A stretch of 64,000 bases of DNA from a virus (IMGVR_UViG_3300033150_001583:8849-72848), one strand, 5' to 3'; shown: positions 14,401-56,289, numbered from the stretch's first letter. Notes: a model not told the origin generated them from the letters alone. Numbers and translations: made by a program.

Positions 14401-16690
14401 TGTTGCTGAAATCGGTAAGGTTGTAAGAGGTTTGCAAAGAGCTACGATAGGTACTCCTGAATACTATCAGTTAGTAGAAAACTTGCGTACCAGATTAGAA
14501 AATCTCTACGGTTTGGATAAGAAGATCAACTCCTTAAGTGAAATTTTTAATCAAATGGCTGTTGAGCTTCCTGAAATCTATGGACAGTTGGCCGATTTAA
14601 GAACAAAGAAGGCTAACCGTGACTTAATAACATTATTTGAACAGATTGAGCAGGTAAATGAAGTATTTAGAGACACTACCCCTCTGTCGATGAAATATTT
14701 CGCGGTACAAAAAGACTTAGTAGAATTAGAACAAAGAGAGTTAGATATTTTAAATGATAGAGTTTCTGCTGCTCAAAAACTGTTTGAATTAACTGGTCAA
14801 GGATTGAGAGAATTTGTCACAATAGCAGGTCAACAAAGGGAGTACCGCAGGGCTTTACTAGAAAATCAACGTGCTCAACTTATTAATCAAATACTAGGCG
14901 GAAAATTTTCGGGGGAAGAATATCAAGCATTACTGAAAGAACTTGTATCAATCGAAAAGCAATGGATGGAACTAATTACTGAACGTAGAGATTTATTAAC
15001 TGAAAGCTTTAAACTTGGTATTATTTCTCTTGAAGAATATATTTCCAAATTAGATGAATTAAGAGATAAAAATTATGATTTAAGGTCTTCTATCTTAGAT
15101 CTAAGAACTACTATGGAAACAAGTATTAGAGAAGCATTTAAGAGTGCGTTAACTGGTGCTTTCACTGGTTCTTTGACGGCTGGCACAGATTTTATAAATT
15201 CAATTAAAAATTCACTTGCCGAGGCTGTATCCGAAAGTATTACTACTTCCCTATTAAACAACGCGGGAATAAAAGGATTATTAGATGAAACACTTAACGA
15301 GATTACTGAATCAATTTACAGTGGAAAGCTTATAGACGATGATGCAATAAGAGATAATTTACAACAAATAATAAATACTTTGTCTGGATACTTGCCTGCT
15401 TATAGAGATTTGCTAAGTGGAATTTTTGAGACGCTAGAGAATTCTGTATTTAACGCCCCTACTGGATTTAAAATTGAACCCTATTTGTATGAATTTATGA
15501 AGGCGCGTGGGCCAGAAGCATTCCCTGGCATAAATTTACCGCCTGATTATGAAAGTGGCACTACTCCCCTACCCTTACCTGAAAATCCTCCTGTGGAGGA
15601 AGTAAAAGTACCAAAAGTACCAGAAAATCCGATAAGAGAAACGTTAGATTTGTTATTTGTAGGACTCGATGAAAAATTTAGAGAACTAACTGATAGAGTT
15701 AGTACTTATTTCGATGAAGTTATTGAAACGTTTGATATATCTAATGTTATTTCTGATATATTGGACAGATATGGTATTAAAGTTGATAGAGGAACTGATT
15801 TTCAGGGAGCTTTAAGACAGGCATTTGATAAGGTTCTTGAGTTAAAGAGAACCTACATGGAGGCAGCTCGTAGGAATGACCAGACTACAATGGAAGCTGC
15901 ACATAAAAGTGCTGATGAAATTCGTAGAAAAATATCTGAAGCTACTGGTGCATCAATTAGTAAAATAAATGATTTAATAGGTGCAGGCAGGTCGTTATAT
16001 AGTATTAGTGAAAGTACTTGGAATCAACTACTTGAATTACCTGAGATTAAAGATGCGATTAATAATAATGCTTCTGCTATAGATTCTTTAAAAGATGCTT
16101 TAAGTAATATTACTATTAATGTTTCTGGTAGTTTTGGTTCTGTAAGTACTAGTGGAAAGGGGTCTGGTAAGAGTTCTGGACGTTCTAGTGGTTCTAGTTC
16201 ATCTGTGCCGAGTTCTGTTTTAGATAAAATTAGAAAGAACCAAGATACTTGGTGGGCTGAATACAACAAACATAAGGATACAATAGATCCAGGTAATCCT
16301 TCTACATGGACAGATGCAATGAAAAAAGCTCATGAAGAAAATGAGAAGCTAACTAGTAAATATGGTTTAGAGTCTGGTACAACCAAGAGATATCATACTG
16401 GTGGTAGAAGTCCTTTTGAACAATTAGCTTTATTAAGGCCAGGAGAAATAGTAATACCTCCTGATTTAGTCCAATTTATAGATAAAGTTCGTGGTAAAGC
16501 ACACTATAGCTTTAATAACACACCAACTGAGAATAATTTTAAAGTAGAGGTAAATGTAGAAGTTAATGGTGGTAATCCTGCTGATGTTACTAAAGCTGTT
16601 GAGGAAGGGGTACAAAATGCTATAAGACAAATCGAAAGAGAAAATCGTATGAATAATTTAAGGTTTAGAGGAGTTAGTTATGCTTATTAA
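8465..16690 (+). CDS. Tape measure protein with internal lytic transglycosylase (SLT) domain
   Basis: 2741 aa, largely helical; TP901-like TMP core around aa 440-740; SLT motif 'FISRESGFNPNAMN...SVGLGQIN' at about nt 13180-13270. Confidence 0.9.
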   Translation: MAKAYETQYIVTLSAVDESLLETLTGQNGVLGALNQIQQKIEQINKTPITIRTKIEDKEAKPSSGGSSSGGTGGISSGGGRPPKHNKRSLDTAEVNQVAAASKKIAKGYNELAGSIEKLKQVGKVSLGKDLGITAKTIGSLRDLGEASGNAGTGLEKVASALEGIGQAKGFSAVKNLGANLTNIRRVEGLGDAAIRAGTGLNEIANALQRMGDVKKIGPTITYTNKQIGKFISTLRHLDQKGTKALVGLETRLASIQQRINDTISKINALSTVGASKLEAFQQRQTKRSISQEQKQDLEKIKEATSAQAQELEKQYLSAMRNIQRQRFGRAMTIADMLGVKIDPRDYQHMFDFNVQLQAAREQVRKMLEQHKRTKQSLYSVIPLYDEMGNKVSQFAVMVDRAGRVIYNFDRDLIQLFQNMFYRMGVWAIATAGVYMFINAIKEAIQYMKDLSRQLKLLEIAAGGLNIGEIIEGIGRLVSEYGGTVAEAVDITYQFVKVLRDEEKALEATKLALMAYNISGLEYDESAELLIGVMNQYNLSIREARDLMDAWAVASRKGTVDFKELAEAFNKSAVAANELGISYKELTAMIEAVGTASGESGKEIGNFVKFILEHARDLETLYAVQEVAGVPVFTETGEYRSTFDVLVDLGKAWKDLSDDQRNYVKTAWASYRQGARFKALMEATSRDIEEFGSTLGILKEIHEGYGEAAYQNALVLNTLQGAFQKLQGVYTTFVQSFTDSGLAQLIKFAVKGLYTLLDLFNKTDDAGTHFLSLISAIITRIAIMARQGMGTLARSIGEFKDAMNSFARAQEVAGTQGAAAQEKIRSEIGVTNTALNHQIALVDRLIAGYRRLFGTEVPQTVKEATKDTEKIIPSRVFSPKTPVTPRQPVDLSYIPSPRKTTPSGIIVPGGISRDFVTSYDRKFNMGLIGRVQDRISKFSNAIRSSLDGIIVSMRNLGNKIPATLRKIDDSFAKALRSSNLFGDALLKIERGEIKAGRAGKTLTGIITTINTALTATTGVIGRLKFAIRGLMAAIPEILLLSLAFEAVYKGIEKIGEAWDKSVERRALYERNRVQAFAMAREDFHKMLAEGRKLYLMPEKERTLTKYEEEELRRLEEREKEGLTTSDEVRLEELRAKKRRQERFQEIRERTTLDLYEWGQHITPEDLMLMDEEEVDRLLDEYFKKLPQKVKEEIKVAKEKIKEEKALRLPLIDPAEISKYETEVNRFFDKINRRLKEYKNQLDYVRESYLGLGSSNEYYKTVLEELTQVQSVILDNYDETNMKLFQVQNKYNEATNALRDYEELLRRQGKDVESMWKKIYTGEIDDSDSDIKKLKEYYDAQQRYEALLVKAKQEQANLNKELVNTKKEMLDLVMSSNEYAGVWDSIQQRIKLVKQTLADLRNIRLTEGVGERIAEIGIEVFGRGWDKPTFLINRISGNIDKLFSNITKIEESLALFGDDQEKLREALDKVKFGEIGQQMKVAVTDPIIQQAKETLKVEERQEEVLKEIKEGIGDLTKTLTEEKFGEGSGKVELGALGWHDLREKTLSGERSITAIVKEYAQKYGDPRLFALTMGFISRESGFNPNAMNTKGEYSVGLGQINLQGAAGKRNISILKEVLKEQGIDLEQAKLAETGIFGKRASSVLYRGEKIKSWEEYLKDPEINIAVTMRRIKEDLERAGGDFIGLMRNYVGPKVPNEEIIRRAKEVNKYAGWELINIDELTKKLKYGNAEGRILAEAQESRKDLVNAEKESVKLLRENISELRQMLIYSLNTIPELAEVLEGLGNVWSGFSVSKAELYRRNIERAFDKIKDIPSLLTKGLEEALKGAVGEYYDAAIAEQEKQYQKEISLREKLITVDRSLAESHSTILENIKDKLIDLLRDAPLDKVDAILDKIREVYNEIVSAKKVELFENLFREIDVNSLLSGISPIFGIDLVNVVDSIKEDLVDLFKQHPDRRGEVENTLRAINDIATQVKYNTTYHVAEIGKVVRGLQRATIGTPEYYQLVENLRTRLENLYGLDKKINSLSEIFNQMAVELPEIYGQLADLRTKKANRDLITLFEQIEQVNEVFRDTTPLSMKYFAVQKDLVELEQRELDILNDRVSAAQKLFELTGQGLREFVTIAGQQREYRRALLENQRAQLINQILGGKFSGEEYQALLKELVSIEKQWMELITERRDLLTESFKLGIISLEEYISKLDELRDKNYDLRSSILDLRTTMETSIREAFKSALTGAFTGSLTAGTDFINSIKNSLAEAVSESITTSLLNNAGIKGLLDETLNEITESIYSGKLIDDDAIRDNLQQIINTLSGYLPAYRDLLSGIFETLENSVFNAPTGFKIEPYLYEFMKARGPEAFPGINLPPDYESGTTPLPLPENPPVEEVKVPKVPENPIRETLDLLFVGLDEKFRELTDRVSTYFDEVIETFDISNVISDILDRYGIKVDRGTDFQGALRQAFDKVLELKRTYMEAARRNDQTTMEAAHKSADEIRRKISEATGASISKINDLIGAGRSLYSISESTWNQLLELPEIKDAINNNASAIDSLKDALSNITINVSGSFGSVSTSGKGSGKSSGRSSGSSSSVPSSVLDKIRKNQDTWWAEYNKHKDTIDPGNPSTWTDAMKKAHEENEKLTSKYGLESGTTKRYHTGGRSPFEQLALLRPGEIVIPPDLVQFIDKVRGKAHYSFNNTPTENNFKVEVNVEVNGGNPADVTKAVEEGVQNAIRQIERENRMNNLRFRGVSYAY

Positions 16691-27200: not shown

Positions 27201-28608
27201 ACTTGAGTTTTATAGAACTGGCCCTAGTACTGGAGTAGATACTTCCCAATATATTACCCTAAAAGATGTACGCTTGGTAAAATATCTTGACAATAGAATT
27301 ATTAAGCCAAGTTTATCAAAAAATGGCATTATGTATGGATTGGAATTTAATGAAGTAGGCCCAACAGATGGGCTTATGGGCTGGTGGAAGTTGGATGAGC
27401 CTATTAATCAACTAGACTACAGTGATTTTTCTTCTATTGGTGATTGGATTGATACGGGGAATAGCCGTGTTACACCTACAATTGTAGATAGTCCAGAAGC
27501 TACAAATGGTAAGGCCATGCAGTTTGCTGGTGGAGAAGGTTGGTATTATAAGAATGTATTAATACCTTATGATCCAAATAAACTGTACTGTGTATCTGGT
27601 AGGGTAAGGCAAGTAGTGGATGATGCTAGTAGCTACTGTTATATAGGAGTAGAAGGAGTAGCTTCAGATGGAACTACTATGATAAATATTAATGGGGCTA
27701 ATTCACACTCTAGTCAACACTATATAGCAGCTTCTCATCAACTTTTAACAGTGGCTAATGGTTGGGTTACATTTAGGGGTTATTTTACAGGTCATTCTAC
27801 ATCCGCTGGAGGGCAGCATAATGATCCTAATAGCCCTGCTGCTATGTATGATGGTGTGGCGTATATTAGGCCTCTCATTATACTTAACTATAATGATGGA
27901 GTAGGAACCGCCGAGGTTGATTATATAGAAGTTAGAGAAATAGCATATGCTAAAGATGTGTCAAGATACATTAATTATGGTATAGTAAATGGGTGCATTA
28001 CTACTACTGGTATAAATGGACTAACTTACAAGTTTAATGGCATGGATGATTATATTAGTATTCCAGATAACTCTATGTATGATTTTACAAATGCATTCAC
28101 AATGAGCCTTTGGATTAAAAGAGATGCATCGTTACCTAAAACTTATAATACTACTTGGAGGGGTGTAGTTACTAAAGGCCCTTTAGTTAGTCCTTATGGC
28201 ATTTATTGGGCATCAGGTGATGGTAGCTCATCTGTAAGTAGTCAATTCGTATTTGAAGTGTATGATGGAACAACTAGAGAACGTGTTTACTTCTCTTTAG
28301 ATACAGAATGGCATCATATCTTAGCGTTATTTAATGGGAGCGAACAATCGGTATACGTCGATGGTAGCTTAGTAGGCACTAACGCTGTTTCTGCGATTAT
28401 TACAGACAATGATCCTATATATATTGGATATGGTGGAAGTGACAGGTATTTCCCAGGTAAGATAGCGGATGTACGCCTATACAACCGTGCCCTATCCCCT
28501 GAAGAAGTTAGAATCCTCTATGAGCTAACTGGTGGTTCAAGTAATAAGATGAAGTTTACTGATAATGGAATAGTTTATGTTAAAGGCCAGTTTAAGGAGG
28601 TGGGTTAG
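24238..28608 (+). CDS. Multi-LamG/concanavalin-A domain receptor-binding protein
   Basis: Several 'W.HY..T', 'G.IDD.R.Y..ALS..E.' LamG signatures plus CBM-like segments. Confidence 0.85.
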   Translation: MGLVAWWKFENSLSSDEGNIASFSRASVAYKEDGTEVTTNIPRYEKGKIGYAVMVEEGTTNLHDDPLFTNVDANNVPTSWTKWIAYDNTVNPTVYEEGLKRFCRLEVNPDGTSLIQQNEVLTVGADYTVSYWARLNVADVSQISYLGFYYANNYYYPTGISFDADGSTTITITGGTLDYEKIKPSNQKYLYKLYDSANNFLGYVVDTDSVNGKVTLDRSVAAGSYTSVYFKHIDHRVYHVPTKDLISDNQWTYQKFTFSIPLHYNENGAYINTSICYRLHTNDGISGYLDIWQPQIEQKPYATSFTDGTRSPETLTIPTAGVIDRPEFTIGMWAKANVVKTDRWQGLFDGRWSPGMPVCLALQVNTNYLYFYYLDENGINTALNTGYVVSNRTAWHHYVITYAGGIIRIFVDGVEIKEATVSLQQNSGTQVFYIGRSKGSNEWWNGFIDDLRIYDYALSDKEIKELAKAKILHYKFDDFQEPTTNNIPSQDYFDVNGLKSAVYDPDTKEWTLVLAAGSSTNWRGILIKYSPDKVIEPAGAVITYSWEVYSEEEVPIVVDLNNYGMTTSTGSNDNRQWAEYHYGNTVPHQWVRMWATYQVNDDQDYYTRNNICFGNGFVPDHDVTIKVRNIQHELKDHPTSFVDGSREGIVHDCSGYEHHATLDADTPQWVEDSKLGGGCYYFNNKPLDGQHFQEIVAPNVYIPRQGTLSAWIKGTTDDQPLDNIYPFGWRNFCTLGPSGGTSDSRSGLIYYYNASSYTTRNWGGQGFYDGNWHLYTIAWDADNDILRLYKDGNKVGDDKSPGTMYHIETFRDFVVGSAWSSTYGGHGGYIDDVRVYATMLSDDDVKQLYQQRASLDDKGNLYTHEFKEPRSHLLIKEQTKNVFDNDWNSMGTWTIEDTDVSDFVESDRTLGNFYIEGWAYCSSADYTPRNMEYTKLNNDQGFRCFIENFLVWPDSWGQGWHYFQVPVTNGDNVTYYSVDQTPWHDMTRLEFYRTGPSTGVDTSQYITLKDVRLVKYLDNRIIKPSLSKNGIMYGLEFNEVGPTDGLMGWWKLDEPINQLDYSDFSSIGDWIDTGNSRVTPTIVDSPEATNGKAMQFAGGEGWYYKNVLIPYDPNKLYCVSGRVRQVVDDASSYCYIGVEGVASDGTTMININGANSHSSQHYIAASHQLLTVANGWVTFRGYFTGHSTSAGGQHNDPNSPAAMYDGVAYIRPLIILNYNDGVGTAEVDYIEVREIAYAKDVSRYINYGIVNGCITTTGINGLTYKFNGMDDYISIPDNSMYDFTNAFTMSLWIKRDASLPKTYNTTWRGVVTKGPLVSPYGIYWASGDGSSSVSSQFVFEVYDGTTRERVYFSLDTEWHHILALFNGSEQSVYVDGSLVGTNAVSAIITDNDPIYIGYGGSDRYFPGKIADVRLYNRALSPEEVRILYELTGGSSNKMKFTDNGIVYVKGQFKEVG

Positions 28609-28609
28609 G

Positions 28610-29467
28610 TTGGCTGAATTGGGGAGTACGACTATATATGGGTTTCTTAGTTTGTTAGCAGAACTAAGGCCACATCCAATACCAGCAGATCAGGCACCCA
28701 ATGGTAGCTTATTTGTAGATTCAGCGGATGAACAACTTAAATGGAAAACGAGAGATGGTACTAATATAATCTCGATAGAGGAGCTTTTTACCTCTGTCAG
28801 TAATGGTAAAACTAATATCGCTGCCGCCATTACTGACATGGGACAATCGGCATCAGGCAGCGATACATTTGATCAGTTAGCTACAGCTATTAGGAATATT
28901 TCGACTGATGCAACAGCATCTGCAAGTAATATTCTTAGTGGTAAGACAGCTTATTCTGGCGGGTCAAAAATAACAGGAACTATGCCTAATAGAGGTGCTT
29001 ACAATATAACTCCTGGTACTAGTAATAAATATATACCAGCAGGATATCATAACGGTAGTGGTGTAGTATATGGGGATGCTAATTTAGTTCCTGGTAATAT
29101 AAAAGATGGGGTTAGTATTTTTGGGGTAGTTGGTAATCTGATTCCTGGAATTGAGTATGCTTCAGGTTCAACTACATCATCTACAATAAGTGCCGAAGTA
29201 GGATTTAGATCTCAGGTGATTATAGTCAGGAATACTGCTGGTGGTGGGGCTTGGTTTATTACTGATAGTCCTGAATTGCCTTATAGAGCATTAGATGTCT
29301 CTCACGTCTACCAAACGTACTACAACAATTGTATTTATATGAGATATGATGGTTATTGTTATCGTACAGATGTAAGTGGTATAACCGATACAGGTTTTTC
29401 AATAACTTTACCTAATCCTCCGACAACTGGCACTTATGAATGGATAGCTTATGCATATGGATGGTAA
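28610..29467 (+). CDS. Tail fibre protein
   Basis: Likely TTG start (MAELGSTTIYG) behind AAGGAGG; 'GK..IA.AIT..G..A....TF..L', 'DATA.A.NILSGKTAY..G.KITGTM' and 'N..PGNIK.GVSIFGV.G' are typical clostridial phage fibre motifs. Confidence 0.75.
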   Translation: MAELGSTTIYGFLSLLAELRPHPIPADQAPNGSLFVDSADEQLKWKTRDGTNIISIEELFTSVSNGKTNIAAAITDMGQSASGSDTFDQLATAIRNISTDATASASNILSGKTAYSGGSKITGTMPNRGAYNITPGTSNKYIPAGYHNGSGVVYGDANLVPGNIKDGVSIFGVVGNLIPGIEYASGSTTSSTISAEVGFRSQVIIVRNTAGGGAWFITDSPELPYRALDVSHVYQTYYNNCIYMRYDGYCYRTDVSGITDTGFSITLPNPPTTGTYEWIAYAYGW

Positions 29468-29492: not shown

Positions 29493-30485
29493 TTGGTAGG
29501 TATTGGTAGAAGGATATACTATAGAAAAGATAATGGAGAGTTTCTTTTTGATACTGGAGAGAAAATAGGTAGACGTGTTAGAGATTCAACAGTAGAACAA
29601 GACTTGAGCATAATAAAGAGCTTACATCCAGATGTAGAATTGGATAATATAGATTTTATTCAGTTAGAATTTGGAGAGTATAGAGATGCAATATCGCTTA
29701 GTAGGTTTCTAACAGTAGATCCTAAAACAAAGAGGTTACAATTTCATGGAATAGTAGTTCTACATGCTTTTCCATATAACAGTGAAAAAGAAAGTTATAC
29801 TAAGACTGAGGTAGAGGAATTCTATAACAAGGACTATATACAATTCAATCTCAGACAATTACTCAAACAAGATTGGATACAATTCAGATGGATGGATATT
29901 GATGATCTGCATAATCGTCAGATTCATGATGCAGAATGGAAAGACTGTTTAGACGATCCTTATTTAGAGAAATATAGGACTGCTAAGATCGCATTAGCGA
30001 AGGACATTCTTGATAATGGAACATATTGGCCGTTTTCTATAGCCAAATTAGATGGAAAATATTACGTGTATGAGGGTAATCATAGAATAGATGCTATCAA
30101 AACCTATGATAAGTTTTGTGGATGGCCGAGAGATAGGAGATTGCTTTGTATTCTCTATCCTGATTTCTTTATAATATACAAAGACAAAAAAACCTACCAT
30201 AAAGTAATGGATTCTCCTGTAAAGCTCAGGATGCCCTATGTTGATAATCCCTCTAAACCATTCGTTGAACAGTTAATGAGAGTTGGTTTAGCTAAACTAG
30301 TAAGACCTAATGTTGTTGAAGTTACAGTCAATACTTACCATGATCTTTTTGACGTTTCGCAAGTTTATCCTCATTGGCTTAGAAATATTTTTTATGAGTT
30401 TGAACAAAAAGGAAGCAGGATTTTACCTAGTAAGATTATTAATTCAGAGATAGAATGGTCTCGTTTTGTTGAAGGGCGGGTGTGA
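29493..30485 (+). CDS. Fusion: fibre-assembly-like N-domain plus ParB/Srx-fold domain
   Basis: N-terminus 'IGRRIYY.K.NG..LFDTGE...IQLE.G.Y...VDP.T..L.F'; later 'WPFSIAKLDGKYYVYEGNHRIDAI' ParB-like motif. Confidence 0.65.
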   Translation: MVGIGRRIYYRKDNGEFLFDTGEKIGRRVRDSTVEQDLSIIKSLHPDVELDNIDFIQLEFGEYRDAISLSRFLTVDPKTKRLQFHGIVVLHAFPYNSEKESYTKTEVEEFYNKDYIQFNLRQLLKQDWIQFRWMDIDDLHNRQIHDAEWKDCLDDPYLEKYRTAKIALAKDILDNGTYWPFSIAKLDGKYYVYEGNHRIDAIKTYDKFCGWPRDRRLLCILYPDFFIIYKDKKTYHKVMDSPVKLRMPYVDNPSKPFVEQLMRVGLAKLVRPNVVEVTVNTYHDLFDVSQVYPHWLRNIFYEFEQKGSRILPSKIINSEIEWSRFVEGRV

Positions 30486-30488
30486 TGA

Positions 30489-31520
30489 ATGAATAAGATT
30501 GGTAGAAAAATATATTACTTAAAGAAGAATGGATTAGTCTTATTTGATACTGGAGAGAAAATAGGCACAAGTGTTAAACAGACCACCTATGAAGATGATA
30601 TTAAGGCTGCGGGTTTAGAGCGATTACATCAAGAAGGCAAAATAGATGTAATTGAGCTTGAATATGGGCAGTATAAGGAGGAGTTCGAACGGGCTTGTTA
30701 TATCAAAGTAAATCCTAAAACAAAGAAGTTAAAGTTTTATTTAGGGGATCGCGTTTATAAGATAGAATTTTATAACGGAGAAGAAAAATACACAAAAGAA
30801 GAAGTGGAGTATATCTATGATCAGTATGTTAATTTTAATCTGAGGAAGATATTAGAAGAAAATATTCCTAAAGTAAGTTTTAGATGGGTTTCTTTAGATG
30901 ATCTAGTAATTAGAGAGGATATACTTGTTAGGTCGTGGAAGAATTATTATAAAGATGGATATTTGGAAGATAGTTCGTTAGATAGAACTCTCCTTGCTAG
31001 GGATATACTTAAGCATGGTACATATTGGCCTATATTAATTGAGAATAATGGAAATGGATTGGTTGTGCATGAGGGCAATCATAGAGTTATATCTGCAAAA
31101 CTTTTTCAACTCGAAGGAGGTTGGCCTAAAAATAGAAGGTTTTTAGCAATAGAGGTTTTTGGTGATTATCCAAGACTTAAGAAAAGTAATCCGCAGGTAG
31201 TTTTACCTAAACCTGTTAGGCAAAGAATTCCCTTTGTTACTAAATTTCCAAGTGTGTCTAGGGATGACAAGGATACCTTAAAGTATATGGAGGAACAAGC
31301 GATAAACTTTGTAGATGATAAGGGGATAATGATTGAACTTTATGCTGATACTTATGAAGAATTTTTTATGTACAATCAAATGATTCCTCATTGGTTAAGA
31401 AATTTATTGTATGAATATAAAACCAAGAAAGGTATTATTATTAAACCTAGTAAAATCTTAAATGATGAAGAAGAATGGAATAAGTGGAGCAGAGGGGGTC
31501 GTCTATGTTCAGTAAGGTAA
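30489..31520 (+). CDS. Paralog of the upstream fusion protein (fibre-assembly-like plus ParB/Srx-fold)
   Basis: Same N-terminal motif; 'WPILIENNGNGLVVHEGNHRVISA'; shared C-terminal 'PHWLRN..YE' motif. Confidence 0.65.
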   Translation: MNKIGRKIYYLKKNGLVLFDTGEKIGTSVKQTTYEDDIKAAGLERLHQEGKIDVIELEYGQYKEEFERACYIKVNPKTKKLKFYLGDRVYKIEFYNGEEKYTKEEVEYIYDQYVNFNLRKILEENIPKVSFRWVSLDDLVIREDILVRSWKNYYKDGYLEDSSLDRTLLARDILKHGTYWPILIENNGNGLVVHEGNHRVISAKLFQLEGGWPKNRRFLAIEVFGDYPRLKKSNPQVVLPKPVRQRIPFVTKFPSVSRDDKDTLKYMEEQAINFVDDKGIMIELYADTYEEFFMYNQMIPHWLRNLLYEYKTKKGIIIKPSKILNDEEEWNKWSRGGRLCSVR

Positions 31521-32413
31521 AAAGAGTAGAAATTGAAATTCATAGTTATTGTAATCGCAAGTGTCCTTGGTGTCCTAATGGTTATGTAGATAGGAGCTTT
31601 TATAAGGAATTAGACGAGGAGGTTTATTTAGAAATTTTGAGGGACTTGAAAAGAAATAATTTTGATTATATGAGAGATAAGAATGATAAAAAACGTATTA
31701 CTATTCATAGGTTTTTTGAACCCTTGTCTAATGCAGAATTAGTTAAAAAGAGAGTTATACAGGGACATGAGATAATTCCTAAAGCGGAATTTAGTCTGAA
31801 TACAAATGGGGATTTTTTAAGTCCAGAGGTCTTGGATGGATTATATTTAGAAAGTTTATATATTATGGACTATGATTGTAAAGGAAGAGAATATTGGCTG
31901 GAGAAATTTAAGAAACTTAATGTACTTTTTATAAATGAAAGGGATAATTTGTTAATTGGTACTCATAAGAATATAAATAAGGTTGTGTGTTGTTTAGATT
32001 GGCCTAAACATGCTGAACTTGAAGATAGAGCGGGGTTTTTACCTGAAGAAGTTTATTATAACGGAGAAAAAATGTCTTGGAAAAATAATAGAGATGTTAG
32101 AAGAGAACCTTGCTTGGAGCCTACGTACTTTATATCAATTGACTATAATGGTAATGTTATGCCTTGTTGTCATATGAGAAGTGATATACCTAGATACTCT
32201 GAGTTTATATTAGGCAATGTGTATAAAAACAAACTCAGTGAGATATTTTCGTCTGAGAAAGCTGAATCACTAAGGAAACTCCTATATAGTTCGAATTATT
32301 CCCAATTTCCAAGTCATTGTCGTCATTGCCAAAAAACCCGTGATGAAAGATTTCTTAGAAGGTTTTTAGATAGAGAAGAAATAGAAAAAATAAGGAAAAT
32401 GAGGGAAAAGTAA
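31505..32413 (+). CDS. Radical SAM enzyme with Twitch/SPASM domain
   Basis: CNRKCPWC; 'TNGDFL'; C-terminal C.EP...G.V.PCC...LGN...C..C. Confidence 0.85.
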   Translation: MFSKVKRVEIEIHSYCNRKCPWCPNGYVDRSFYKELDEEVYLEILRDLKRNNFDYMRDKNDKKRITIHRFFEPLSNAELVKKRVIQGHEIIPKAEFSLNTNGDFLSPEVLDGLYLESLYIMDYDCKGREYWLEKFKKLNVLFINERDNLLIGTHKNINKVVCCLDWPKHAELEDRAGFLPEEVYYNGEKMSWKNNRDVRREPCLEPTYFISIDYNGNVMPCCHMRSDIPRYSEFILGNVYKNKLSEIFSSEKAESLRKLLYSSNYSQFPSHCRHCQKTRDERFLRRFLDREEIEKIRKMREK

Positions 32414-32415
32414 CG

Positions 32416-33252
32416 ATGTTATCTGAGGTGAGACTTGTTGAAATAGAAATTCATAGCAAATGTAATCGTAAGTGTTTATGGTGTCCAAATAGAGAGTTGG
32501 ACAGAACAAAGTTTATAGAGATGTCGTCAAGTATTTATAAAAAATTTTTATATGAATTGCGAGATGGTAACTTTAGTGGCACTATAACTTACTCAAGATA
32601 TAATGAGCCATTTTATGATATTAGCCTGTTCAAAAAAAGAGTGAAAGAGGCAAAATCAATTTTGCCAGATGTAAAACTTGTAACTAATACTAATGGGGAT
32701 TTTTTATCTCGCGAAAATTTAGATGGCCTTTTAATAGATGATTTAACTATCATGGATTATGACTGTATTGGTTTATATCAGTGTCAGCGGAGATTAATAG
32801 AGTTGGGTGTTAAGATAACTAAACTCGATTATCCATATATTTACGGAACACATAAAAATATTAGTAAGGTGTTGTATTTTGTTGATTGGCCTAGACATGC
32901 GCTTTTTGAAGATAGGGGTGGTTTTCTAAGAGATAAAAATTTGCGGTGGAAAAATAATCGAGAAAGAAGAAAGAGACCATGCTTAGAACCAAGGTATTTT
33001 ATTGCAGTTGATTATAATGGTAATGTTACTCCTTGTTGTCATATTCGTAGTGATATCAAAGAGCATAAGCCTTATATTTTGGGAAATTTATATCAACAAG
33101 ATATTGTGACTATTTTTTATAGCGATAAGGCTAGAAAATTTAGGGAGTTATTATCTAGTAATAAATATGATGAATATCCCTTCCCCTGTCAACATTGTCA
33201 AAAAGATGCGGGGAGATATACAAGAGATAATCCTAGCATTGATTTTGATTAA
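32416..33252 (+). CDS. Radical SAM enzyme with Twitch/SPASM domain (paralog)
   Basis: CNRKCLWC; same C-terminal Cys pattern; visibly similar to the upstream gene. Confidence 0.85.
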   Translation: MLSEVRLVEIEIHSKCNRKCLWCPNRELDRTKFIEMSSSIYKKFLYELRDGNFSGTITYSRYNEPFYDISLFKKRVKEAKSILPDVKLVTNTNGDFLSRENLDGLLIDDLTIMDYDCIGLYQCQRRLIELGVKITKLDYPYIYGTHKNISKVLYFVDWPRHALFEDRGGFLRDKNLRWKNNRERRKRPCLEPRYFIAVDYNGNVTPCCHIRSDIKEHKPYILGNLYQQDIVTIFYSDKARKFRELLSSNKYDEYPFPCQHCQKDAGRYTRDNPSIDFD

Positions 33253-33259
33253 AGGAGGG

Positions 33260-33916
33260 ATGGTTATTAAGTTAGGGGTTTTTATTCCAGGTAGACTTAA
33301 GAGTGAAAGGTTGCCGAATAAACTTATTCTTCCTATTGGAAAGTCGTGTTTGTGGGATATAGCATGTAGAAAATTAAATACACTCCCTGATAAGTATAAC
33401 AAGTATGCACTTGTCTGCGATAAAGAATTAATTGATATAGCTTCAAAATATCATAATATTAAAGTAATACATAGAGATAGAGAGACTGCCGAGGCTGAGG
33501 GGCCTTTGAAATTTATTTTTAAAGATTTGAAAGATGTAGAAGATACTCACTTAATGTTTCTTAATCCTTGTTTAAGTTTTTTGACCAAAGAAACTATTCA
33601 GAGATGCCTAGAAGAGTTCGAAGAACAGAAGTATGATTATGCGACAAGTGTTAAAAAGTTGCAGAATTGGATCTTTGATGAAAATGGTATTCCTTTAAAT
33701 TCTATTGATTATAAAAGACTTACTACAAAAGAAATCAAACCGATATACCAAGCTGCCCATTGTTTCCATATTTTTAATAAAGAAAAATTTTTTGAGGATG
33801 GAATGATGCTGAAACCTGGGCACGGGCTTATTGAAGTTCCTTACGAAGAAACTATTGATGTAGATACTTTAGAAGATTATCGGTATGTGAGGTATAGACA
33901 TGAGATATGTAGTTGA
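33260..33916 (+). CDS. Acylneuraminate cytidylyltransferase (NeuA/CMP-nonulosonate synthetase family)
   Basis: 'FIPGRLKSERLPNK' matches the IPAR.GSKR.P.K motif; C-terminal 'IDVDTLEDY'; ATG at 33260 behind AAGGAGG. Confidence 0.8.
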   Translation: MVIKLGVFIPGRLKSERLPNKLILPIGKSCLWDIACRKLNTLPDKYNKYALVCDKELIDIASKYHNIKVIHRDRETAEAEGPLKFIFKDLKDVEDTHLMFLNPCLSFLTKETIQRCLEEFEEQKYDYATSVKKLQNWIFDENGIPLNSIDYKRLTTKEIKPIYQAAHCFHIFNKEKFFEDGMMLKPGHGLIEVPYEETIDVDTLEDYRYVRYRHEICS

Positions 33917-34196
33917 TATAGACGGGACTATTTGCACTCAAAGAGAAAAAGGTGATTATGAAAATGCTGAACCCTTGCCAGAAAGGATAGAAAAGATAAA
34001 TAAATTATATGATGAAGGTCATACTATTTGGTTTTTTACAGCTAGGGGTTCTGAGACAGGAATAAATTGGCGGGAACTCACAGAAAAACAACTTAAAGAT
34101 TGGGGTGTTAAATATCACAGATTATTGTTTGGTAAACCTAGTGCTGATAGATATATAGACGACAAAGCTGTAAATGCTAACGAAAAGGAATGGTAG
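33900..34196 (+). CDS. Small capless HAD phosphatase (capsule-biosynthesis type)
   Basis: HAD motifs DIDGT, TAR, GKP, IDD. Confidence 0.8.
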   Translation: MRYVVDIDGTICTQREKGDYENAEPLPERIEKINKLYDEGHTIWFFTARGSETGINWRELTEKQLKDWGVKYHRLLFGKPSADRYIDDKAVNANEKEW

Positions 34197-34197
34197 T

Positions 34198-34518
34198 ATG
34201 GAGAATATAAGGGTGATAAATAAAAAATGGGGCAAAGAAAAGTGGATAAAAGTAACAGATAATTATGCTTTTAAGATATTGGAAATAAGCAGAGGTTGTT
34301 CTACTTCCCTGCACTATCATAAATACAAAGAAGAAACATGGTATGTTATTGAGGGTTTGGGGATTGCTCAAGTTAATAATAGGATAATACGTATAGAAGA
34401 AGGAGATTTTATTCACATTAAACCCAAGGTTTGTCATAGGTTAAGTGCTATTGAAAATTTGAAAATAGCCGAAGTTTCTACCTCTGAATTATGGGATGTG
34501 GTGAGGGTGATGAAGTAA
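34198..34518 (+). CDS. Cupin (mannose-6-phosphate isomerase type II-like)
   Basis: 'K.WG.E', 'SLHYH..KEETWYV..G.G', 'H.I..K..HRL' cupin motifs. Confidence 0.75.
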   Translation: MENIRVINKKWGKEKWIKVTDNYAFKILEISRGCSTSLHYHKYKEETWYVIEGLGIAQVNNRIIRIEEGDFIHIKPKVCHRLSAIENLKIAEVSTSELWDVVRVMK

Positions 34519-35351
34519 TGTTTATAGGTGAAATAGGTATTAATCATAATGGTAATATCGAATTAGCTAAGAAAATTATAGATATGGCAAAAAGAGCTGG
34601 GGTCGATGTTGTTAAGTTTCAAAAGAGGAATCCCGATTTATGTGTTCCCAAGGAACAGAAAAACAAAATTAAGGATACTCCTTGGGGTAGAATGACTTAT
34701 ATTGAATATAAGCATAAGATTGAATTTGGGAAGGACGAATATGATGAAATAGATAGGTATTGTAAGGATAATCAAATATTATGGACAGCAAGTGTTTGGG
34801 ATGTAGATAGTTTGGATTTTATTTTGCAGTATGATGTGCCTTTTATAAAAATTCCTAGTGCTTGTATTACTGATTTAGAATTACTTACAAGAGTTAAAGG
34901 TGCTAACAAACCAGTAATTATTTCTACAGGAATGAGTACAGAGCAAGAGATAGAAAAAGCAGTTAATATTTTAGATAATGTAGATCTTACAATAATGCAT
35001 TGTAATAGCAGTTATCCAGCTAATGATAACGAATTGGATTTACGGGTTATTTGTACTTTAAAGAAAAAATTTCTGTGGCACAAGATAGGATACAGTAGTC
35101 ATGACCTTGGAATAGGTGCTTGTATTGTAGCAAAAGTATTAGGGGCCGAGGTTATTGAAAAACACATTACTTTAGATAAAACTATGTGGGGTAGTGATCA
35201 AAAAATTAGCTTGGAATTTGATGAGTTAAGTGAATTAATACAGTATTTGAAAAGAATACCTGTTTGGCTAGGGGATAATGTAATAAAAGTTTATGATTCT
35301 GAAAAGAAAATTAGGAATAAATTAAGAAGGGTACGAAATGAGGTGAAATAA
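34518..35351 (+). CDS. neuB: NeuB-family nonulosonate synthase (short form, no C-terminal SAF domain)
   Basis: 'FIGEIGINHNG', 'VKFQKR', 'MHCNSSYP', 'GYSSH', 'IEKHITLD' signatures. Confidence 0.9.
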   Translation: MFIGEIGINHNGNIELAKKIIDMAKRAGVDVVKFQKRNPDLCVPKEQKNKIKDTPWGRMTYIEYKHKIEFGKDEYDEIDRYCKDNQILWTASVWDVDSLDFILQYDVPFIKIPSACITDLELLTRVKGANKPVIISTGMSTEQEIEKAVNILDNVDLTIMHCNSSYPANDNELDLRVICTLKKKFLWHKIGYSSHDLGIGACIVAKVLGAEVIEKHITLDKTMWGSDQKISLEFDELSELIQYLKRIPVWLGDNVIKVYDSEKKIRNKLRRVRNEVK

Positions 35352-37269: not shown

Positions 37270-37632
37270 ATGGGTGAAGCTCCAAGTGTAAATTATGTTG
37301 ACCCTGGGGAGCAAACTAATAAATCTAAGTTGGATGCTTTAAAAGCTGATGTAGACAATGCGCTAACAACTACTGGTGCTTCTTTTACATGGACGGAGTG
37401 GCCGATAAGTGTTGGAGAAGCAATAAACGATGCAGATATTCTTGAGTTAAGAAGTGCCCTTGATGTTGCTTATGATAATCTTGATATAGGATGTTCAACT
37501 TATCACTCAACTGTTTATAGTGCTACATATAGTGACTATGGGGATGATTCTGAGGATTCTCATGATTCTTCAGATGATAGTAATAATAGTGTTAGATCAT
37601 TTAACTCTGGGGATTTTAATCTTTATGATTAG
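37270..37632 (+). CDS. Small protein with D/S/N/Y-rich C-terminal core; putative radical-SAM substrate
   Basis: Leader-like N-terminus; core CSTYHSTVYSATYSDYGDDSEDSHDSSDDSNNSVRS; directly upstream of rSAM genes. Confidence 0.6.
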   Translation: MGEAPSVNYVDPGEQTNKSKLDALKADVDNALTTTGASFTWTEWPISVGEAINDADILELRSALDVAYDNLDIGCSTYHSTVYSATYSDYGDDSEDSHDSSDDSNNSVRSFNSGDFNLYD

Positions 37633-37644
37633 GAGGCGATTAAT

Positions 37645-37875
37645 TTGCCTTATGCATGGGTACAGAGTATTCCTGGAGATGGTGTGCTTGATGAACAAAT
37701 TGATGAAATTAAAAGTGTAGCTGATTATATAAATTCTAGTCATTGTCCTGGTTACTATGGTTCTGTTAAATCTGCTAATCATATTACTCACTATGGTGAT
37801 TATGGTGATGATAGTGATGATAGTGTCAATACTAATAATTCTGATAGAAGTGATAATAGCGTAAATTTAGCCTGA
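37645..37875 (+). CDS. Paralogous small D/S/N-rich protein; putative radical-SAM substrate
   Basis: AGGAGG RBS, TTG start; shares C-x-x-Y-x3-V-x-SA...DYGDDS(E/D)DS...NNS-x-RS with the upstream gene. Confidence 0.6.
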   Translation: MPYAWVQSIPGDGVLDEQIDEIKSVADYINSSHCPGYYGSVKSANHITHYGDYGDDSDDSVNTNNSDRSDNSVNLA

Positions 37876-41868: not shown

Positions 41869-42885
41869 TTGAAAAGAGCCTTGGATTATATTAAATATAA
41901 ACCATATTGGGGTACTGGAGAAGGAGTAAAAATAGCAATAATGGATCAGCCTACAGAAATAAAATTATTCCCTGATCTTAATGTAACTCCAGTTAATTAT
42001 AACGGAAGTAGTTATAATTTTCCTCATGGTACAATGGTTTTAGATGTTTGTTCTGAAATAGCAAGTGAAGCTGAGTATTATACGTACCCTACCTTGGTTT
42101 ATAACATAGAAACACAATATATAAAAGATTTGGAAGATTGTATTAAACGTGGTGTTGATGTAGTTAATATGTCTTTTTCTATTCCTCCCCAAGAAGTTAC
42201 GGAAGATATGATTGAAATAACGAGAGAAGCTTATAAAGCAGGAATTAAGATTGTAACTTCTTCTGGGAATACAGGAGACCGTAATGTAAGATTTCCTGGA
42301 GATATGGACGAAGAAGTTATAGCGGTTGGGGCTATTTCTATGGATACAGGTGAAATAGCTAGTTATACAACTAGAGGAGAATACTTAGAGATTTTAGCTC
42401 CATCAGGAGTTTGGGTTAGAGACAATACAGGAGAAATGACATATTTTAGAGGAACCTCTACTTCCTCCCCTATTGTGGCTAGTTCAATTGCTGTTTTTAT
42501 CGAGACATATAGAAAGTTACACGGAGAAGATCCAAATATTGAGCAATGTAGACACTTTCTTTTATTTGACCATAAAATGATTAACGGTTATCCCCTATTT
42601 GAGTATCCAGATTATCAAAAATTCTGGGGGGTTGAAAAACCATTTGTAGGTAGAAAAGCAGTGTTTCAAATCGGCAATAAACATCTCTATATTTATGATT
42701 GCTCTGCTAGCGAAGAAAAATTAATTAAAGAAATTGTAATGGATATTGCTCCAACTCTGATGCAGTCGGATAAGAAAGGATATGCAAGAACCATGATTCC
42801 ATTAAGGTTCGCATTTGAAGCCTTTGGATTAAATGTTGAATGGGTTCCTGAAGGAAAGAAAATTATTGTTAGAAAAAATGTGTAA
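41869..42885 (+). CDS. Subtilisin-like serine protease (S8) with C-terminal copper-amine-oxidase N-domain
   Basis: Catalytic motifs GVKIAIMD, HGT.V, SSGN.G, GTS.SSP; C-terminal 'RTMIPLRFAFEAFGLNVEW'. Confidence 0.85.
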   Translation: MKRALDYIKYKPYWGTGEGVKIAIMDQPTEIKLFPDLNVTPVNYNGSSYNFPHGTMVLDVCSEIASEAEYYTYPTLVYNIETQYIKDLEDCIKRGVDVVNMSFSIPPQEVTEDMIEITREAYKAGIKIVTSSGNTGDRNVRFPGDMDEEVIAVGAISMDTGEIASYTTRGEYLEILAPSGVWVRDNTGEMTYFRGTSTSSPIVASSIAVFIETYRKLHGEDPNIEQCRHFLLFDHKMINGYPLFEYPDYQKFWGVEKPFVGRKAVFQIGNKHLYIYDCSASEEKLIKEIVMDIAPTLMQSDKKGYARTMIPLRFAFEAFGLNVEWVPEGKKIIVRKNV

Positions 42886-54405: not shown

Positions 54406-56289
54406 ATGCAACTAAGAGCAACTTTTGAGCCAGAATTTGATTACTTGTACGAGCAATTTAAAAACACTAAATATGGAAAAGAACTTTTAGATTTAGAAGG
54501 GGTAAGCTTAGATAAAACAGATGTAGGTTTGATGTCTTATAACTATTTTACAAAAGATGTCCAAGATATGACCGTTGACCAAAATGCCAATGCAAATGAA
54601 GATAAATGCCCCAACAATTACAGTGCTGAAATTACCAAAGGAATTTTAAAACTTGAAGGTCATTATCTTTTGTGGAGGTATGCTAAGAAGCGTTTTGGAA
54701 TACATAGGGCGAATCAGATGATGCGTTCTCTTTGGAAGGGTGATTTGTATTTTCATGATTCGTCAGGAAGTAACATCCAAAAGCCGTACTGCGTTGCGTT
54801 CAGTACAGCCCATATAATGAATGATGGTCGTAGGTATGGGCAACTGCACTCTTTGCCACCTAAGAGAGCTGATTCTTTTATTGCTCAGGTAATTGAAAGT
54901 ACGATGGACTTATCACAAGAATTCGCGGGGGCCTTAGCCCCAGCCGATATGATAGTTAATTATTGTTATTATGCCAAAAAAGAAAATTTATCGGAGTATA
55001 AGATTAAGAATGATTTTCAGAAGTTTATTCATGTTGTTAATAATAAGTTTAGACTGGGGTCAGAAAGCCCTTTTACAAATATTTCATTATTTTGTCGAGA
55101 AAATCTTAAAAAAGTTTTTGGTGACTACGTATATCCAGATGGTAGTAAGCCTGATTTTGAATATATAATGAAAGTCCAAAAAATTTTTGGGGAAATAATG
55201 GCAAAAGGAGATCCAGCAACAGGGCTTGCATATAGATTTCCTGTTACTACAGTAAATTTGATGGTTGATGAAAATAATGAAATTCTTGATAAAGATTTTT
55301 TGGAATGGACTTGCAGTAACAATATAGACAAGGCTTGTTTTAATATTTATGTAAATGATGGTGAGAAGCTCTGTTCTTGTTGTAGATTAACAAACAACAT
55401 GGAAGAAATGCGTAAAAAACGAGCTGATACTTTTGGCAATGGTGGAGTTTCGATTGGGAGCCATCGTGTTGTAACAATTAACCTGCCCCGCATTGCACGA
55501 CAAGCTCAAACAAGAGAAGAATTTTATAGATTGCTCGATAATCGACTGGAGATTGCAAGAGACTTTTTGTTAGTGCACAGAGAAGAAATTTTAAATCGCA
55601 GAATTAAACAAGGTTTTCTCAAGTTTTTTGAGCCACTTAAATGGTTTAATCAAAGTATGTTTTTCAGCACTATTGGAATTACAGGTATATATGAAATGAA
55701 TAAATTTGCGGGGTTCGATATAAACACCAAAGAAGGCCAAGAGTTTACTGAAGAAGTTTTAAGGTATATCAACAACAAAGCTGATGAGTTTTATGAACAA
55801 ACAGGTTGGGCCTTTAATGTTGAAGAAATTCCTGCTGAATCGGCTGCTGTAACACTTGCTAAAAAAGACAAAATAATTTTTGGCGATAATCCATTTGAGC
55901 TATATTCGAACCAGTACTTCCCTCTTATTGCTGATGTTGATATTATTGATCGAATTGAAGTTACAGGTAAATTCATGGAATTAACTTCAGGTGGCGGAAT
56001 TTTACATTTAAATATTGAAGAACAAATAACCGATCCTGAAAAAATGAAGTTCTTGATTAAACAGTGTGTAAAACATGGTGTAACTCATTTTGCAATCAAT
56101 TACGGCTATATTATCTGCAAGGGATGTGGTGAAGTTACTGTCGGTGGTAACGCTAAAAGCTGCCCCAAATGTGGTAGTAAAGATATTGATTACATGACGA
56201 GGGTAATTGGGTACTATTCTATCGTGTCTAAATGGAATCCTGTAAGAAGAAATTATGAATTTCCGAATAGAAAATTTAAGAAGATATAA
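54406..56289 (+). CDS. nrdD: Anaerobic (class III) ribonucleoside-triphosphate reductase
   Basis: 'YFHD', 'PYC', 'CSCCRL', 'E.PAES', C-terminal zinc CxxC...CPKC and 'TRVIGYY' glycyl-radical motif. Confidence 0.92.
   Translation: MQLRATFEPEFDYLYEQFKNTKYGKELLDLEGVSLDKTDVGLMSYNYFTKDVQDMTVDQNANANEDKCPNNYSAEITKGILKLEGHYLLWRYAKKRFGIHRANQMMRSLWKGDLYFHDSSGSNIQKPYCVAFSTAHIMNDGRRYGQLHSLPPKRADSFIAQVIESTMDLSQEFAGALAPADMIVNYCYYAKKENLSEYKIKNDFQKFIHVVNNKFRLGSESPFTNISLFCRENLKKVFGDYVYPDGSKPDFEYIMKVQKIFGEIMAKGDPATGLAYRFPVTTVNLMVDENNEILDKDFLEWTCSNNIDKACFNIYVNDGEKLCSCCRLTNNMEEMRKKRADTFGNGGVSIGSHRVVTINLPRIARQAQTREEFYRLLDNRLEIARDFLLVHREEILNRRIKQGFLKFFEPLKWFNQSMFFSTIGITGIYEMNKFAGFDINTKEGQEFTEEVLRYINNKADEFYEQTGWAFNVEEIPAESAAVTLAKKDKIIFGDNPFELYSNQYFPLIADVDIIDRIEVTGKFMELTSGGGILHLNIEEQITDPEKMKFLIKQCVKHGVTHFAINYGYIICKGCGEVTVGGNAKSCPKCGSKDIDYMTRVIGYYSIVSKWNPVRRNYEFPNRKFKKI

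Follow-up and report, generated by a model that had tools for sequence, protein, structure and literature searches.

A predicted nonulosonate cassette with radical SAM and ParB/Srx-fold partners in a phage tail-fibre operon

A sugar block within a late fibre operon

The window analysed here is a stretch of 64,000 nucleotides, bases 8849–72848 of the virus record IMGVR_UViG_3300033150_001583, which is complete at 139,584 bp and has direct terminal repeats. Our subject is a block of four genes at positions 33260–35351 (window coordinates throughout, unless noted), encoding a cytidylyltransferase related to NeuA, a small phosphatase of the haloacid dehalogenase (HAD) type, a cupin and a short synthase of the NeuB family. 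A reading of the sequence alone had listed them as cupin, NeuB, HAD phosphatase and CMP-transferase. Coordinates, motifs and Pfam matches agree that all four are present, intact and co-oriented on the plus strand, although the listing followed the order of the pathway and the actual gene order is NeuA-HAD-cupin-NeuB. Two pairs of genes, for ParB/Srx-fold proteins and for radical S-adenosylmethionine (SAM) enzymes, precede them, and fibre genes lie on either side. From 5′ to 3′ the genes (lengths in amino acids, aa) are as follows.

28577–29467, plus strand: fibre-tip protein just upstream of the cassette, with PHROG tail-fibre matches; possible acceptor
29493–30485, plus strand: predicted ParB/Srx-fold protein 1, 330 aa; 41% identical paralogue of protein 2, its N-terminal domain matching phrog_3321
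30489–31520, plus strand: predicted ParB/Srx-fold protein 2, 343 aa; in an AlphaFold2 model, a phage-specific N-terminal domain (residues 1 to about 100), a ParB/Srx domain (about 125–235) and a C-terminal domain
31484–32413, plus strand: BtrN-like twitch radical SAM enzyme 1, 309 aa; Pfam SPASM and Radical_SAM matches, BtrN at E 3.7e-15
32416–33252, plus strand: BtrN-like twitch radical SAM enzyme 2, 278 aa; BtrN over its full length at E 1.6e-19
33260–33916 (reading frame open from 33167), plus strand: NeuA/KdsB-type CMP-ulosonate cytidylyltransferase, 218 aa; Pfam CTP_transf_3
33900–34196, plus strand: capless mini-HAD phosphatase, 98 aa, a predicted nonulosonate-9-phosphate phosphatase; HAD motifs and TIGR01689
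34198–34518 (reading frame from 34174), plus strand: small type II cupin resembling phosphomannose isomerase (PMI), 106 aa from its likely start; Pfam Cupin_2 and MannoseP_isomer
34518–35351 (reading frame open from 34491), plus strand: SAF-less NeuB-family synthase condensing phosphoenolpyruvate (PEP) with an aldose, 277 aa, a predicted Kdn-9-phosphate synthase (Kdn, 2-keto-3-deoxynonulosonic acid); PF03102
35352–37256, plus strand: 634-aa fibre-like protein just downstream, with Pfam DUF4815; possible acceptor

The sugar genes are tightly coupled to one another and to their neighbours. NeuA begins at ATG 33260, with AGGAGG seven bases upstream, and overlaps the HAD gene by 17 nt; the HAD stop and cupin start form the junction TAGTATG, which makes ATG 34198 the likelier cupin start, and the cupin stop overlaps the NeuB start in TAATG, with ATG 34518 the likelier start of NeuB. 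The fibre-like gene begins one base past the NeuB stop codon. All the way from the fibre gene at 24238 to the end of the fibre-like gene at 37256, successive genes overlap or lie 0–8 nt apart. Promoter-like sites between 24000 and 37300 did not exceed their frequency in shuffled sequence, and this block contains no terminator-like site, the single one (37360) lying downstream of it. Since they have no promoter or terminator signal of their own above chance, the sugar genes are assigned to the late fibre operon. Fibre genes also flank the cassette in three of the related viral loci described below (L003, L166 and L168): the C-terminal part of the fibre-tip protein is homologous to a 523-aa fibre directly before the ParB-like gene in L166, and homologues of the 634-aa fibre-like protein flank the cassette in L003 and L168.

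The four enzymes and their probable product

Membership of the NeuB family was judged by the Pfam gathering score together with the N-terminal EIGxNHNG motif and the metal- and PEP-binding His/Glu motifs. The phage synthase belongs to the family, scoring 250.5 bits against PF03102 (cut-off 22.1) and keeping all the invariant columns of a short-NeuB alignment. It does not reach the equivalog models for NeuB/NnaB (TIGR03569, 244.7 bits against a cut-off of 399.65) or PseI (TIGR03586, 194.1 bits against 340.25). No SAF domain was found in the synthase or elsewhere in the complete genome. The sequence-only reading had called the protein a short NeuB, and at 277 aa without SAF it is one; nevertheless it is neither an oddity nor a truncation, as it belongs to a large SAF-less subfamily. 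SAF-less NeuBs of 270–295 aa saturated a protein search with the phage synthase; more than 575 IMG/VR contigs encode one, as do at least 600 stretches of bacterial and archaeal species genomes, in taxa that include Streptomyces, Chloroflexi, Ignavibacteria, Chlorobi, Pelagibacteraceae and DPANN archaea. The structure of a 290-aa short NeuB has been solved (PDB 6ncs). The number of viral contigs suggests that virus-encoded nonulosonate synthesis is common, yet in phages that have been cultured it is practically undescribed: tblastn with the NeuB against 50,697 deposited phage records found two matches only, both uncultured, and none in a cultured phage, while megablast with the whole island gave no match at the DNA level.

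The phage NeuB shares 67% identity with its closest relatives in metagenomes and about 50% with the short NeuBs of Streptomyces, Chloroflexi and Ignavibacteria. In a Streptomyces genome (G003) the short NeuB is the sole NeuB homologue, and directly ahead of it lie a DUF6716 putative glycosyltransferase and a fusion of NeuA with a HAD domain. Such NeuA-HAD fusions, found beside short NeuB in Streptomyces and Woesearchaeota, carry a HAD of the KdsC/Hydrolase_3 type. A Caldiserica locus has HAD, short NeuB and NeuA genes followed by oxidoreductases and a methyltransferase. None of the cellular short-NeuB loci sampled contained a radical SAM gene; one of them (L180) had NAD-type oxidoreductases.

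The NeuA-like protein scores 37 bits against CTP_transf_3 (cut-off 22.6), which places it in that family, and its N-terminal IP(A/G)RxxSxRLPxK motif is readable in the translation; it is weakly PseF- and KdsB-like and lies below every NCBIfam equivalog cut-off. In the HAD protein motifs I–IV can all be read (DxDGT with D6/D8, T47, K79 and D87/D88), as expected of a capless C0 member, and its length of 98 aa leaves no room for a cap domain. Its closest NCBIfam family is TIGR01689 (EcbF/BcbF) at 33.7 bits, under the cut-off of 162; the nearest solved chain is PDB 9iqw, annotated as a 'capsule biosynthesis protein' (E 6.7e-13), and no KdsC-family model is among its NCBIfam matches at E ≤ 0.01. 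Judged from these matches, the phosphatase is an EcbF/BcbF-like mini-HAD and not of the KdsC/YrbI type represented by BT1713. In L166 and L178, two related phage cassettes, NeuA carries a mini-HAD of this family fused at its C-terminus.

The cupin has the His/Glu/His motifs of its fold and scores 41.9 bits against Cupin_2 and 38 bits against MannoseP_isomer (PF01050, cut-off 23.6). The last match agrees with its earlier description as resembling mannose-6-phosphate isomerase, although likeness to PMI is weak outside Pfam: the PDB matches are generic cupins, among them a 113-aa mannose-6-phosphate isomerase at E 0.0014. The cupin recurs beside short NeuB in two types of viral locus, ParB-type and Maf-type, independently of radical SAM genes, which ties its role to the synthase. 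The idea that it works with the radical SAM enzymes on a keto sugar, as an isomerase, was set aside, since 12 Maf-type loci have the cupin without radical SAM.

In Bacteroides thetaiotaomicron and Prymnesium, Kdn is made from mannose 6-phosphate (Man-6-P) and PEP by way of Kdn-9-phosphate (Kdn-9-P), which is dephosphorylated to Kdn and activated to CMP-Kdn; the animal route to N-acetylneuraminic acid (Neu5Ac) likewise runs via a 9-phosphate and a HAD phosphatase (PMC6200933). Streptomyces walls bear a Kdn-containing teichulosonic acid (PMC11481543). The family assignments of all four phage genes uphold the earlier logic of isomerase, synthase, phosphatase and cytidylyltransferase, and the four are probably a route to a CMP-activated sialic-acid-like sugar, Kdn. 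Fusion of the phosphatase to the cytidylyltransferase in related cassettes implies that the product of the synthase is phosphorylated, the hallmark of the Kdn route. The proposal of a Kdn-type pathway with a phosphorylated intermediate is thus strengthened by the NeuA-HAD fusions and by the link to Streptomyces, while Man-6-P as the substrate is something we infer. The clues to a Kdn-9-P synthase are circumstantial, namely the adjacent phosphatase, the PMI-like cupin and the Streptomyces relatives. Pfam and PHROG scans of the genome's larger open reading frames (ORFs) revealed no NeuC/GNE-type epimerase, no kinase of known type and no acetyltransferase, and no DegT-type aminotransferase was found in the genome. 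An eight-carbon product, 3-deoxy-D-manno-octulosonic acid (Kdo), was judged unlikely, the synthase being of the NeuB and not the KdsA family.

Conserved partners in place of a known transferase

The sequence-only reading had noted that the window holds no recognisable glycosyltransferase or Maf-type protein, and proposed a search of the rest of the genome. That observation extends to the complete 139,584-bp genome, in which profile searches and Pfam/PHROG scans found no recognised glycosyltransferase family, and none of the Maf, sialyltransferase or Kdo-transferase families. A six-frame search with hidden Markov models (HMMs) for MptE/Maf, GT2, GT1/GT4, DUF6716 and Capsule_synth gave no match at E ≤ 0.1; the CST-I (GT42) model likewise gave none at that threshold, a result that is uninformative because it matched none of the control genomes either. 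HMMs of the gene families neighbouring viral short NeuBs gave no transferase-type match in the genome. Nor did Pfam or PHROG scans, which covered nearly every ORF from 240 aa upwards, reveal a glycosyltransferase, GT52, GT80, GT38 and GT30 not having been searched separately.

We therefore looked to the company the sugar genes keep. Around short NeuB, 85 viral loci were collected, 70 of them non-redundant, and their genes were clustered. Most are of the Maf type (46 of 70, mostly marine), which combines short NeuB, NeuA, mini-HAD and often the cupin with a Maf/CST-I-like protein; this protein reaches the gathering score for CST-I and matches MptE/Maf as well, and such loci often contain another NeuB, of the long kind, together with genes for a dehydratase and an aminotransferase. 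The ParB type, to which the window belongs, accounts for a further 12, in which one or more ParB-like and one or more radical SAM/SPASM genes precede the sugar genes and no Maf/CST-I-like protein is present. ParB-like and Maf-like genes never share a locus (none of the 12 or the 46), and in all but one of the 12 ParB-type loci (11 of 12) a radical SAM gene neighbours the ParB-like gene. When the ParB-type loci are combined with loci found via the ParB-like protein, they form a set of 17 lineages, in which NeuB is present in 17, NeuA in 16, the ParB-like gene in 15, radical SAM in 15 (orthologues of radical SAM enzyme 2 in 15 of the 17 cassettes) and the cupin in five; any further family is common to at most three. 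The association is kept down to about 55% NeuB identity and across unrelated phage backbones. A scan of viral contigs with a narrower ParB-like alignment gave four loci, each with a NeuB or NeuB-like gene near. Four further ParB-anchored contigs are either shorter than 1 kb (two) or end before NeuB could appear (two). In the NeuB tree the ParB-type sequences form one deep, long-branched group and the Maf-type sequences one clade. Fisher tests of co-occurrence are formally strong but confounded by this phylogeny, and we do not take their p-values as independent evidence.

The survey changes how the four genes should be seen. They had been presented as a free-standing pathway, whereas in the 17 lineages they are one half of a conserved cassette, usually found beside fibre genes, whose other half consists of one or two BtrN-like radical SAM and one or two ParB/Srx-like genes. 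This conserved pairing suggests that the final product is probably a tailored derivative of Kdn. It also gives substance to the earlier notion of a novel loading enzyme: for the steps still missing, tailoring and loading, the ParB-like and radical SAM proteins are now the foremost candidates, with a chemistry that we infer.

The two radical SAM enzymes are 48% identical to each other, and BtrN is the sole PDB sequence match for either. Enzyme 2 aligns with BtrN residue for residue at the CxxxCxxC motif and at all four cysteines of the auxiliary cluster. Its size and full-length similarity also correspond to BtrN (PDB 4M7T), and the match points to small-molecule carbinol chemistry more than to peptide cross-linking. 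The presence of NAD-dependent oxidoreductases in the equivalent place of cellular short-NeuB loci fits such chemistry. BtrN itself oxidises a secondary alcohol of 2-deoxy-scyllo-inosamine ahead of an aminotransferase step, in which the phage locus differs, the genome having no aminotransferase of the DegT type. A predicted complex between radical SAM enzyme 2 and the ParB-like protein scored 0.02, which weighs neither for nor against binding.

The ParB/Srx-fold proteins have no Pfam match, ParB_N included. An AlphaFold model of the family built from 16 members has a pLDDT (predicted local distance difference test) of 81.7, and its seven best VIA matches (Z 5.0–7.7) all belong to the ParB/Srx superfamily, in the order sulfiredoxin (Z 7.7), KorB, SbnI, PadC, SerK, sulfiredoxin again and pNOB8 ParB. 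Foldseek put two free serine kinases, SbnI and SerK, at the top together with the related 1vk1, and returned PadC, ParB and sulfiredoxin with probability 1.0, though at E-values no better than 1e-3 to 1e-2. A profile search of the PDB with the family found superfamily members exclusively, and weakly. At the level of the modelled fold, the proteins encoded at 29493–31520 are thus members of the ParB/Srx superfamily. A conserved NGTYWP...EGxHR motif aligns to DGHHR of SerK and GERR of ParB, and its type places the family nearer the kinase and sulfiredoxin members than the CTPase clamps. With SerK/SbnI, sulfiredoxin and ParB/Noc/KorB/PadC the phage proteins share the core fold and a (D/E)GxHR phosphate-binding motif at the equivalent position; unlike them, they have extra N- and C-terminal domains, no helix-turn-helix or other DNA-binding domain and no match to ParB_N.

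A full HMM search shows the ParB-like family to be small, with 310 clusters (E ≤ 1e-10) among 1.84 billion representatives. It is rare in genomes of cells: among 399 of one class, the genome with L166 alone had clear members, the other matches being one moderate (E 6.7e-11) and four marginal ones. The extra N-terminal domain is found on the ParB-like proteins of this phage, L166, L068/L170 and L003. Folded alone (pLDDT 86.5), it has no solved relative, the best match reaching Z 3.6, and otherwise matches uncharacterised small phage proteins only; its PHROG label of 'rhodanese-related sulfurtransferase' is without support.

Several individual cassettes deserve mention. In a 203-kb phage (IMGVR_UViG_3300033747_000022), a gene for a 207-aa NeuB-like protein (L169:14293–14916, plus strand) lies by two ParB-like and two BtrN-like genes, about 90 kb from a full short NeuB (L006), a sign that a genome can carry the two halves of the cassette apart from each other or in duplicate. 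Between a radical SAM gene and a GT4-NeuA-HAD-NeuB block in L168 (14945–15646, plus strand) is a gene for a protein of 228–233 aa with a folded head and a long tail in which tryptophan recurs every fourth residue, a design resembling the D/S/N-rich repeat proteins at 37270–37875 of the window; tails of this kind may accept the sugar or undergo the radical SAM chemistry. In L178 (7870–9480, plus strand) an O-carbamoyltransferase gene of the NodU/CmcH/TobZ type directly follows NeuB in a ParB-type cassette, and a carbamoylated nonulosonate would be a further tailoring variant; this contig is labelled 'archaeon' yet has phage-like genes (ThyX, RuvC and SbcCD-like). L166 encodes, between a ParB-like and a radical SAM gene (13776–14633, plus strand), a protein of 270–285 aa with a PP-loop-like GRDSTAA motif and a CxxC pair, which may be an ATP-pyrophosphatase-type partner. 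In L168 the radical SAM and ParB-like genes have a faint Peptidase_U32 match in their midst (12687–13673, plus strand). The U32 family includes oxygen-independent hydroxylases, and such a gene would fit an anaerobic tailoring chemistry.

Competing readings and their meaning

Nearly all genes of the window are on the plus strand, in structural, lysis and replication modules, and the phage also encodes RecA and DnaB. Three further features bear on its host and lifestyle.

41869–42885, plus strand: subtilase-type protein with a Cu_amine_oxidN1 wall-binding domain, probably of the lysis set (domain scan)
54406–56289, plus strand: anaerobic ribonucleotide reductase NrdD (domain scan)
G000:C1:2588–3427, 75764–76735 and 85194–86204, minus strand, outside the window: two tyrosine integrases and an actin-like ParM/ALP segregation ATPase (Pfam and PHROG scans)

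The subtilase-type protein and NrdD point to a strictly anaerobic, Gram-positive host, while the integrases, the segregation ATPase and the direct terminal repeats suggest that the phage is temperate or a plasmid-prophage. Taken together, the gene content speaks for a phage that is temperate or plasmid-like and whose host is an anaerobic Firmicute.

We lean, with moderate confidence, towards a reading in which the cassette makes a Kdn-type CMP-sugar that is tailored and loaded by the radical SAM and ParB/Srx proteins to decorate a fibre or other virion protein. The PMI-like cupin would convert fructose 6-phosphate to Man-6-P, the SAF-less NeuB would condense this with PEP to Kdn-9-P, the mini-HAD would remove the 9-phosphate and the NeuA homologue would use cytidine triphosphate (CTP) to form the CMP-sugar. 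The BtrN-like enzymes would most likely carry out an oxygen-independent oxidation or epimerisation of a carbinol on the sugar or its precursor, and the ParB/Srx-fold proteins, acting on a nucleotide-linked substrate, would most likely phosphorylate an intermediate or acceptor or else load the sugar. The tailored acidic sugar would then go onto a fibre, or onto a neighbouring virion protein, translated from the shared late transcript, and the cassette would replace the Maf/CST-I-type transferase used by the sister group of phages. What the sequences show are the identities and intactness of the genes, the operon, the synteny and the genome-wide lack of known transferase families; the exact sugar, the radical SAM and ParB-like chemistry and the acceptor are proposals. 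A bolder version, which we put forward tentatively and with a modest chance of being right, holds that the ParB/Srx proteins are a new loading enzyme dependent on a CMP-nonulosonate, or its obligatory phosphotransfer partner, that the BtrN-like enzymes tailor Kdn without oxygen or NAD, and that the fibres would bear a novel acidic sugar attached by a system of non-glycosyltransferase fold peculiar to phages of anaerobes.

Several points weigh against the favoured reading. The phage is uncultured, and no public sequencing run was listed as holding the stretch; the assignment of the cupin to PMI comes from one Pfam domain match alongside generic structural ones; and sequence does not distinguish Kdn from another nine-carbon acid, or Man-6-P from a different aldose phosphate. 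The two groups in the NeuB tree mean that the mutual exclusion of ParB-like and Maf-like genes amounts to one evolutionary contrast and not to many independent events. The ParB-like gene is linked most tightly to the radical SAM genes, and one ParB-type lineage, L168, has a GT4-like gene next to NeuA, so the ParB-like protein need not be the transferase.

If the phage supplies only the CMP-sugar, transferases of the host acting on wall polymers, the S-layer or flagellin might use it, and the altered surface could serve immune evasion by the lysogen or superinfection exclusion, a use that the sequence-only reading had suggested alongside the masking of fibres. The want of any transferase family in the complete genome agrees with this, the two integrases and the ParM-like gene make a carrier state plausible, and a related cassette lies at a prophage edge in a bacterial contig (L002). 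We nevertheless regard host remodelling as unlikely, since the genes sit inside a late fibre operon without a promoter or terminator of their own, unlike typical lysogenic-conversion morons, and their exchange among unrelated phages, always together with the ParB-like and radical SAM genes and next to fibre genes, argues for a self-contained function directed at the virion. On another reading there are two independent modules, the radical SAM and ParB-like proteins modifying fibre or repeat proteins by peptide chemistry and the sugar genes being an unrelated neighbour, with no loader in the cassette. In both further ParB-anchored contigs with adequate flanks the ParB-like gene is beside radical SAM with no NeuB visible, and a second set of radical SAM and repeat-protein genes is found just downstream here, in L003 and in L168. 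These contigs are the ones that end too early to reveal a NeuB, however, and in all 15 lineages that have enough sequence NeuA/NeuB directly adjoin the ParB-like and radical SAM genes; moreover, BtrN, the one match of either radical SAM protein and a match over the full length, is a dehydrogenase of small-molecule carbinols whose cluster ligands they share. An unrelated pair of modules is in our judgement improbable.

The identity of the sugar can be questioned in a different way. Neu5Ac or another N-acylated nonulosonate might be made from N-acetylmannosamine 6-phosphate by the animal-type 9-phosphate route, which includes a HAD phosphatase (PMC6200933), and the best NCBIfam match of the synthase is indeed the NeuB/NnaB model, but its score falls far under the cut-off. 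No NeuC/GNE-type epimerase, kinase of known type, aminotransferase or acetyltransferase was found in the genome scans, the isomerase is PMI-like and the nearest cellular relatives are in Kdn-containing Streptomyces, all of which make an N-acylated product distinctly unlikely. Finally, the end product might be soluble, a CMP-sugar or nucleotide modified by radical SAM chemistry for host takeover or anti-defence and never a glycan donor. Such a product would be in keeping with the lack of a transferase and with a cassette in which an enzyme that uses CTP is joined by radical SAM chemistry and a ParB/Srx fold that binds nucleotides. Given that the cassette is consistently beside fibre genes, that the sister clade pairs the same synthase, NeuA and HAD with Maf/CST-I-like transferases, and that we found no precedent, we consider a soluble product highly improbable.

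Among described systems the closest to the favoured decoration pathway is the CMP-Kdn route of B. thetaiotaomicron, whose Kdn-9-P synthase is BT1714, and of Prymnesium parvum, which has the synthase, HAD phosphatase and cytidylyltransferase acting via a 9-phosphate (PMC6200933). The likeness to BT1714 is one of pathway logic and not of direct sequence comparison, and a Man-6-P-supplying isomerase fits upstream. The phage pathway differs in its place within a tail-fibre operon, in its 98-aa mini-HAD of EcbF/BcbF and not KdsC type, and in coming with a PMI-like cupin of its own as well as the BtrN-like radical SAM enzymes and the ParB/Srx-fold proteins. Among genomic loci the one in Streptomyces with short NeuB is the nearest analogue, with a SAF-less NeuB about 50% identical and a phosphatase tied to NeuA in an organism that makes Kdn (PMC11481543); unlike the phage cassette, it adjoins a putative transferase and has no radical SAM or ParB-like gene, and its own link to Kdn is presumptive. 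The Maf/CST-I-type phage cassettes of IMG/VR share the short NeuB subfamily, NeuA, the mini-HAD and often the small cupin, but differ in their Maf/CST-I-like protein (46 of 70 loci), in the lack of a ParB-like gene and in their separate NeuB clade.

The nearest functional analogue is the Maf-dependent O-glycosylation of flagellin with pseudaminic or legionaminic acid in Campylobacter and Helicobacter. There, as in the proposed model, a CMP-nonulosonate made by the cluster is loaded in the cytoplasm onto a protein of a surface filament; in the phage there is no Maf protein and no amino or acetamido chemistry on the sugar, and the target would be a phage fibre. In the literature we found no published description of phage short-NeuB cassettes, of BtrN-like enzymes in phages or of ParB/Srx proteins in sugar pathways.

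For enzymology, the cassette would bring a radical SAM enzyme of the BtrN family to a nonulosonate and a ParB/Srx-fold protein to sugar transfer or activation. If the favoured reading is true, tailed phages that infect anaerobic Firmicutes, probably of gut type, cover part of the adsorption apparatus with a sugar resembling sialic acid, using enzymes that surveys of glycosylation would not flag. Such a coat could affect host recognition, resistance to lectins or antibodies of the host or an animal, and the behaviour of these phages in mucus and in therapy.

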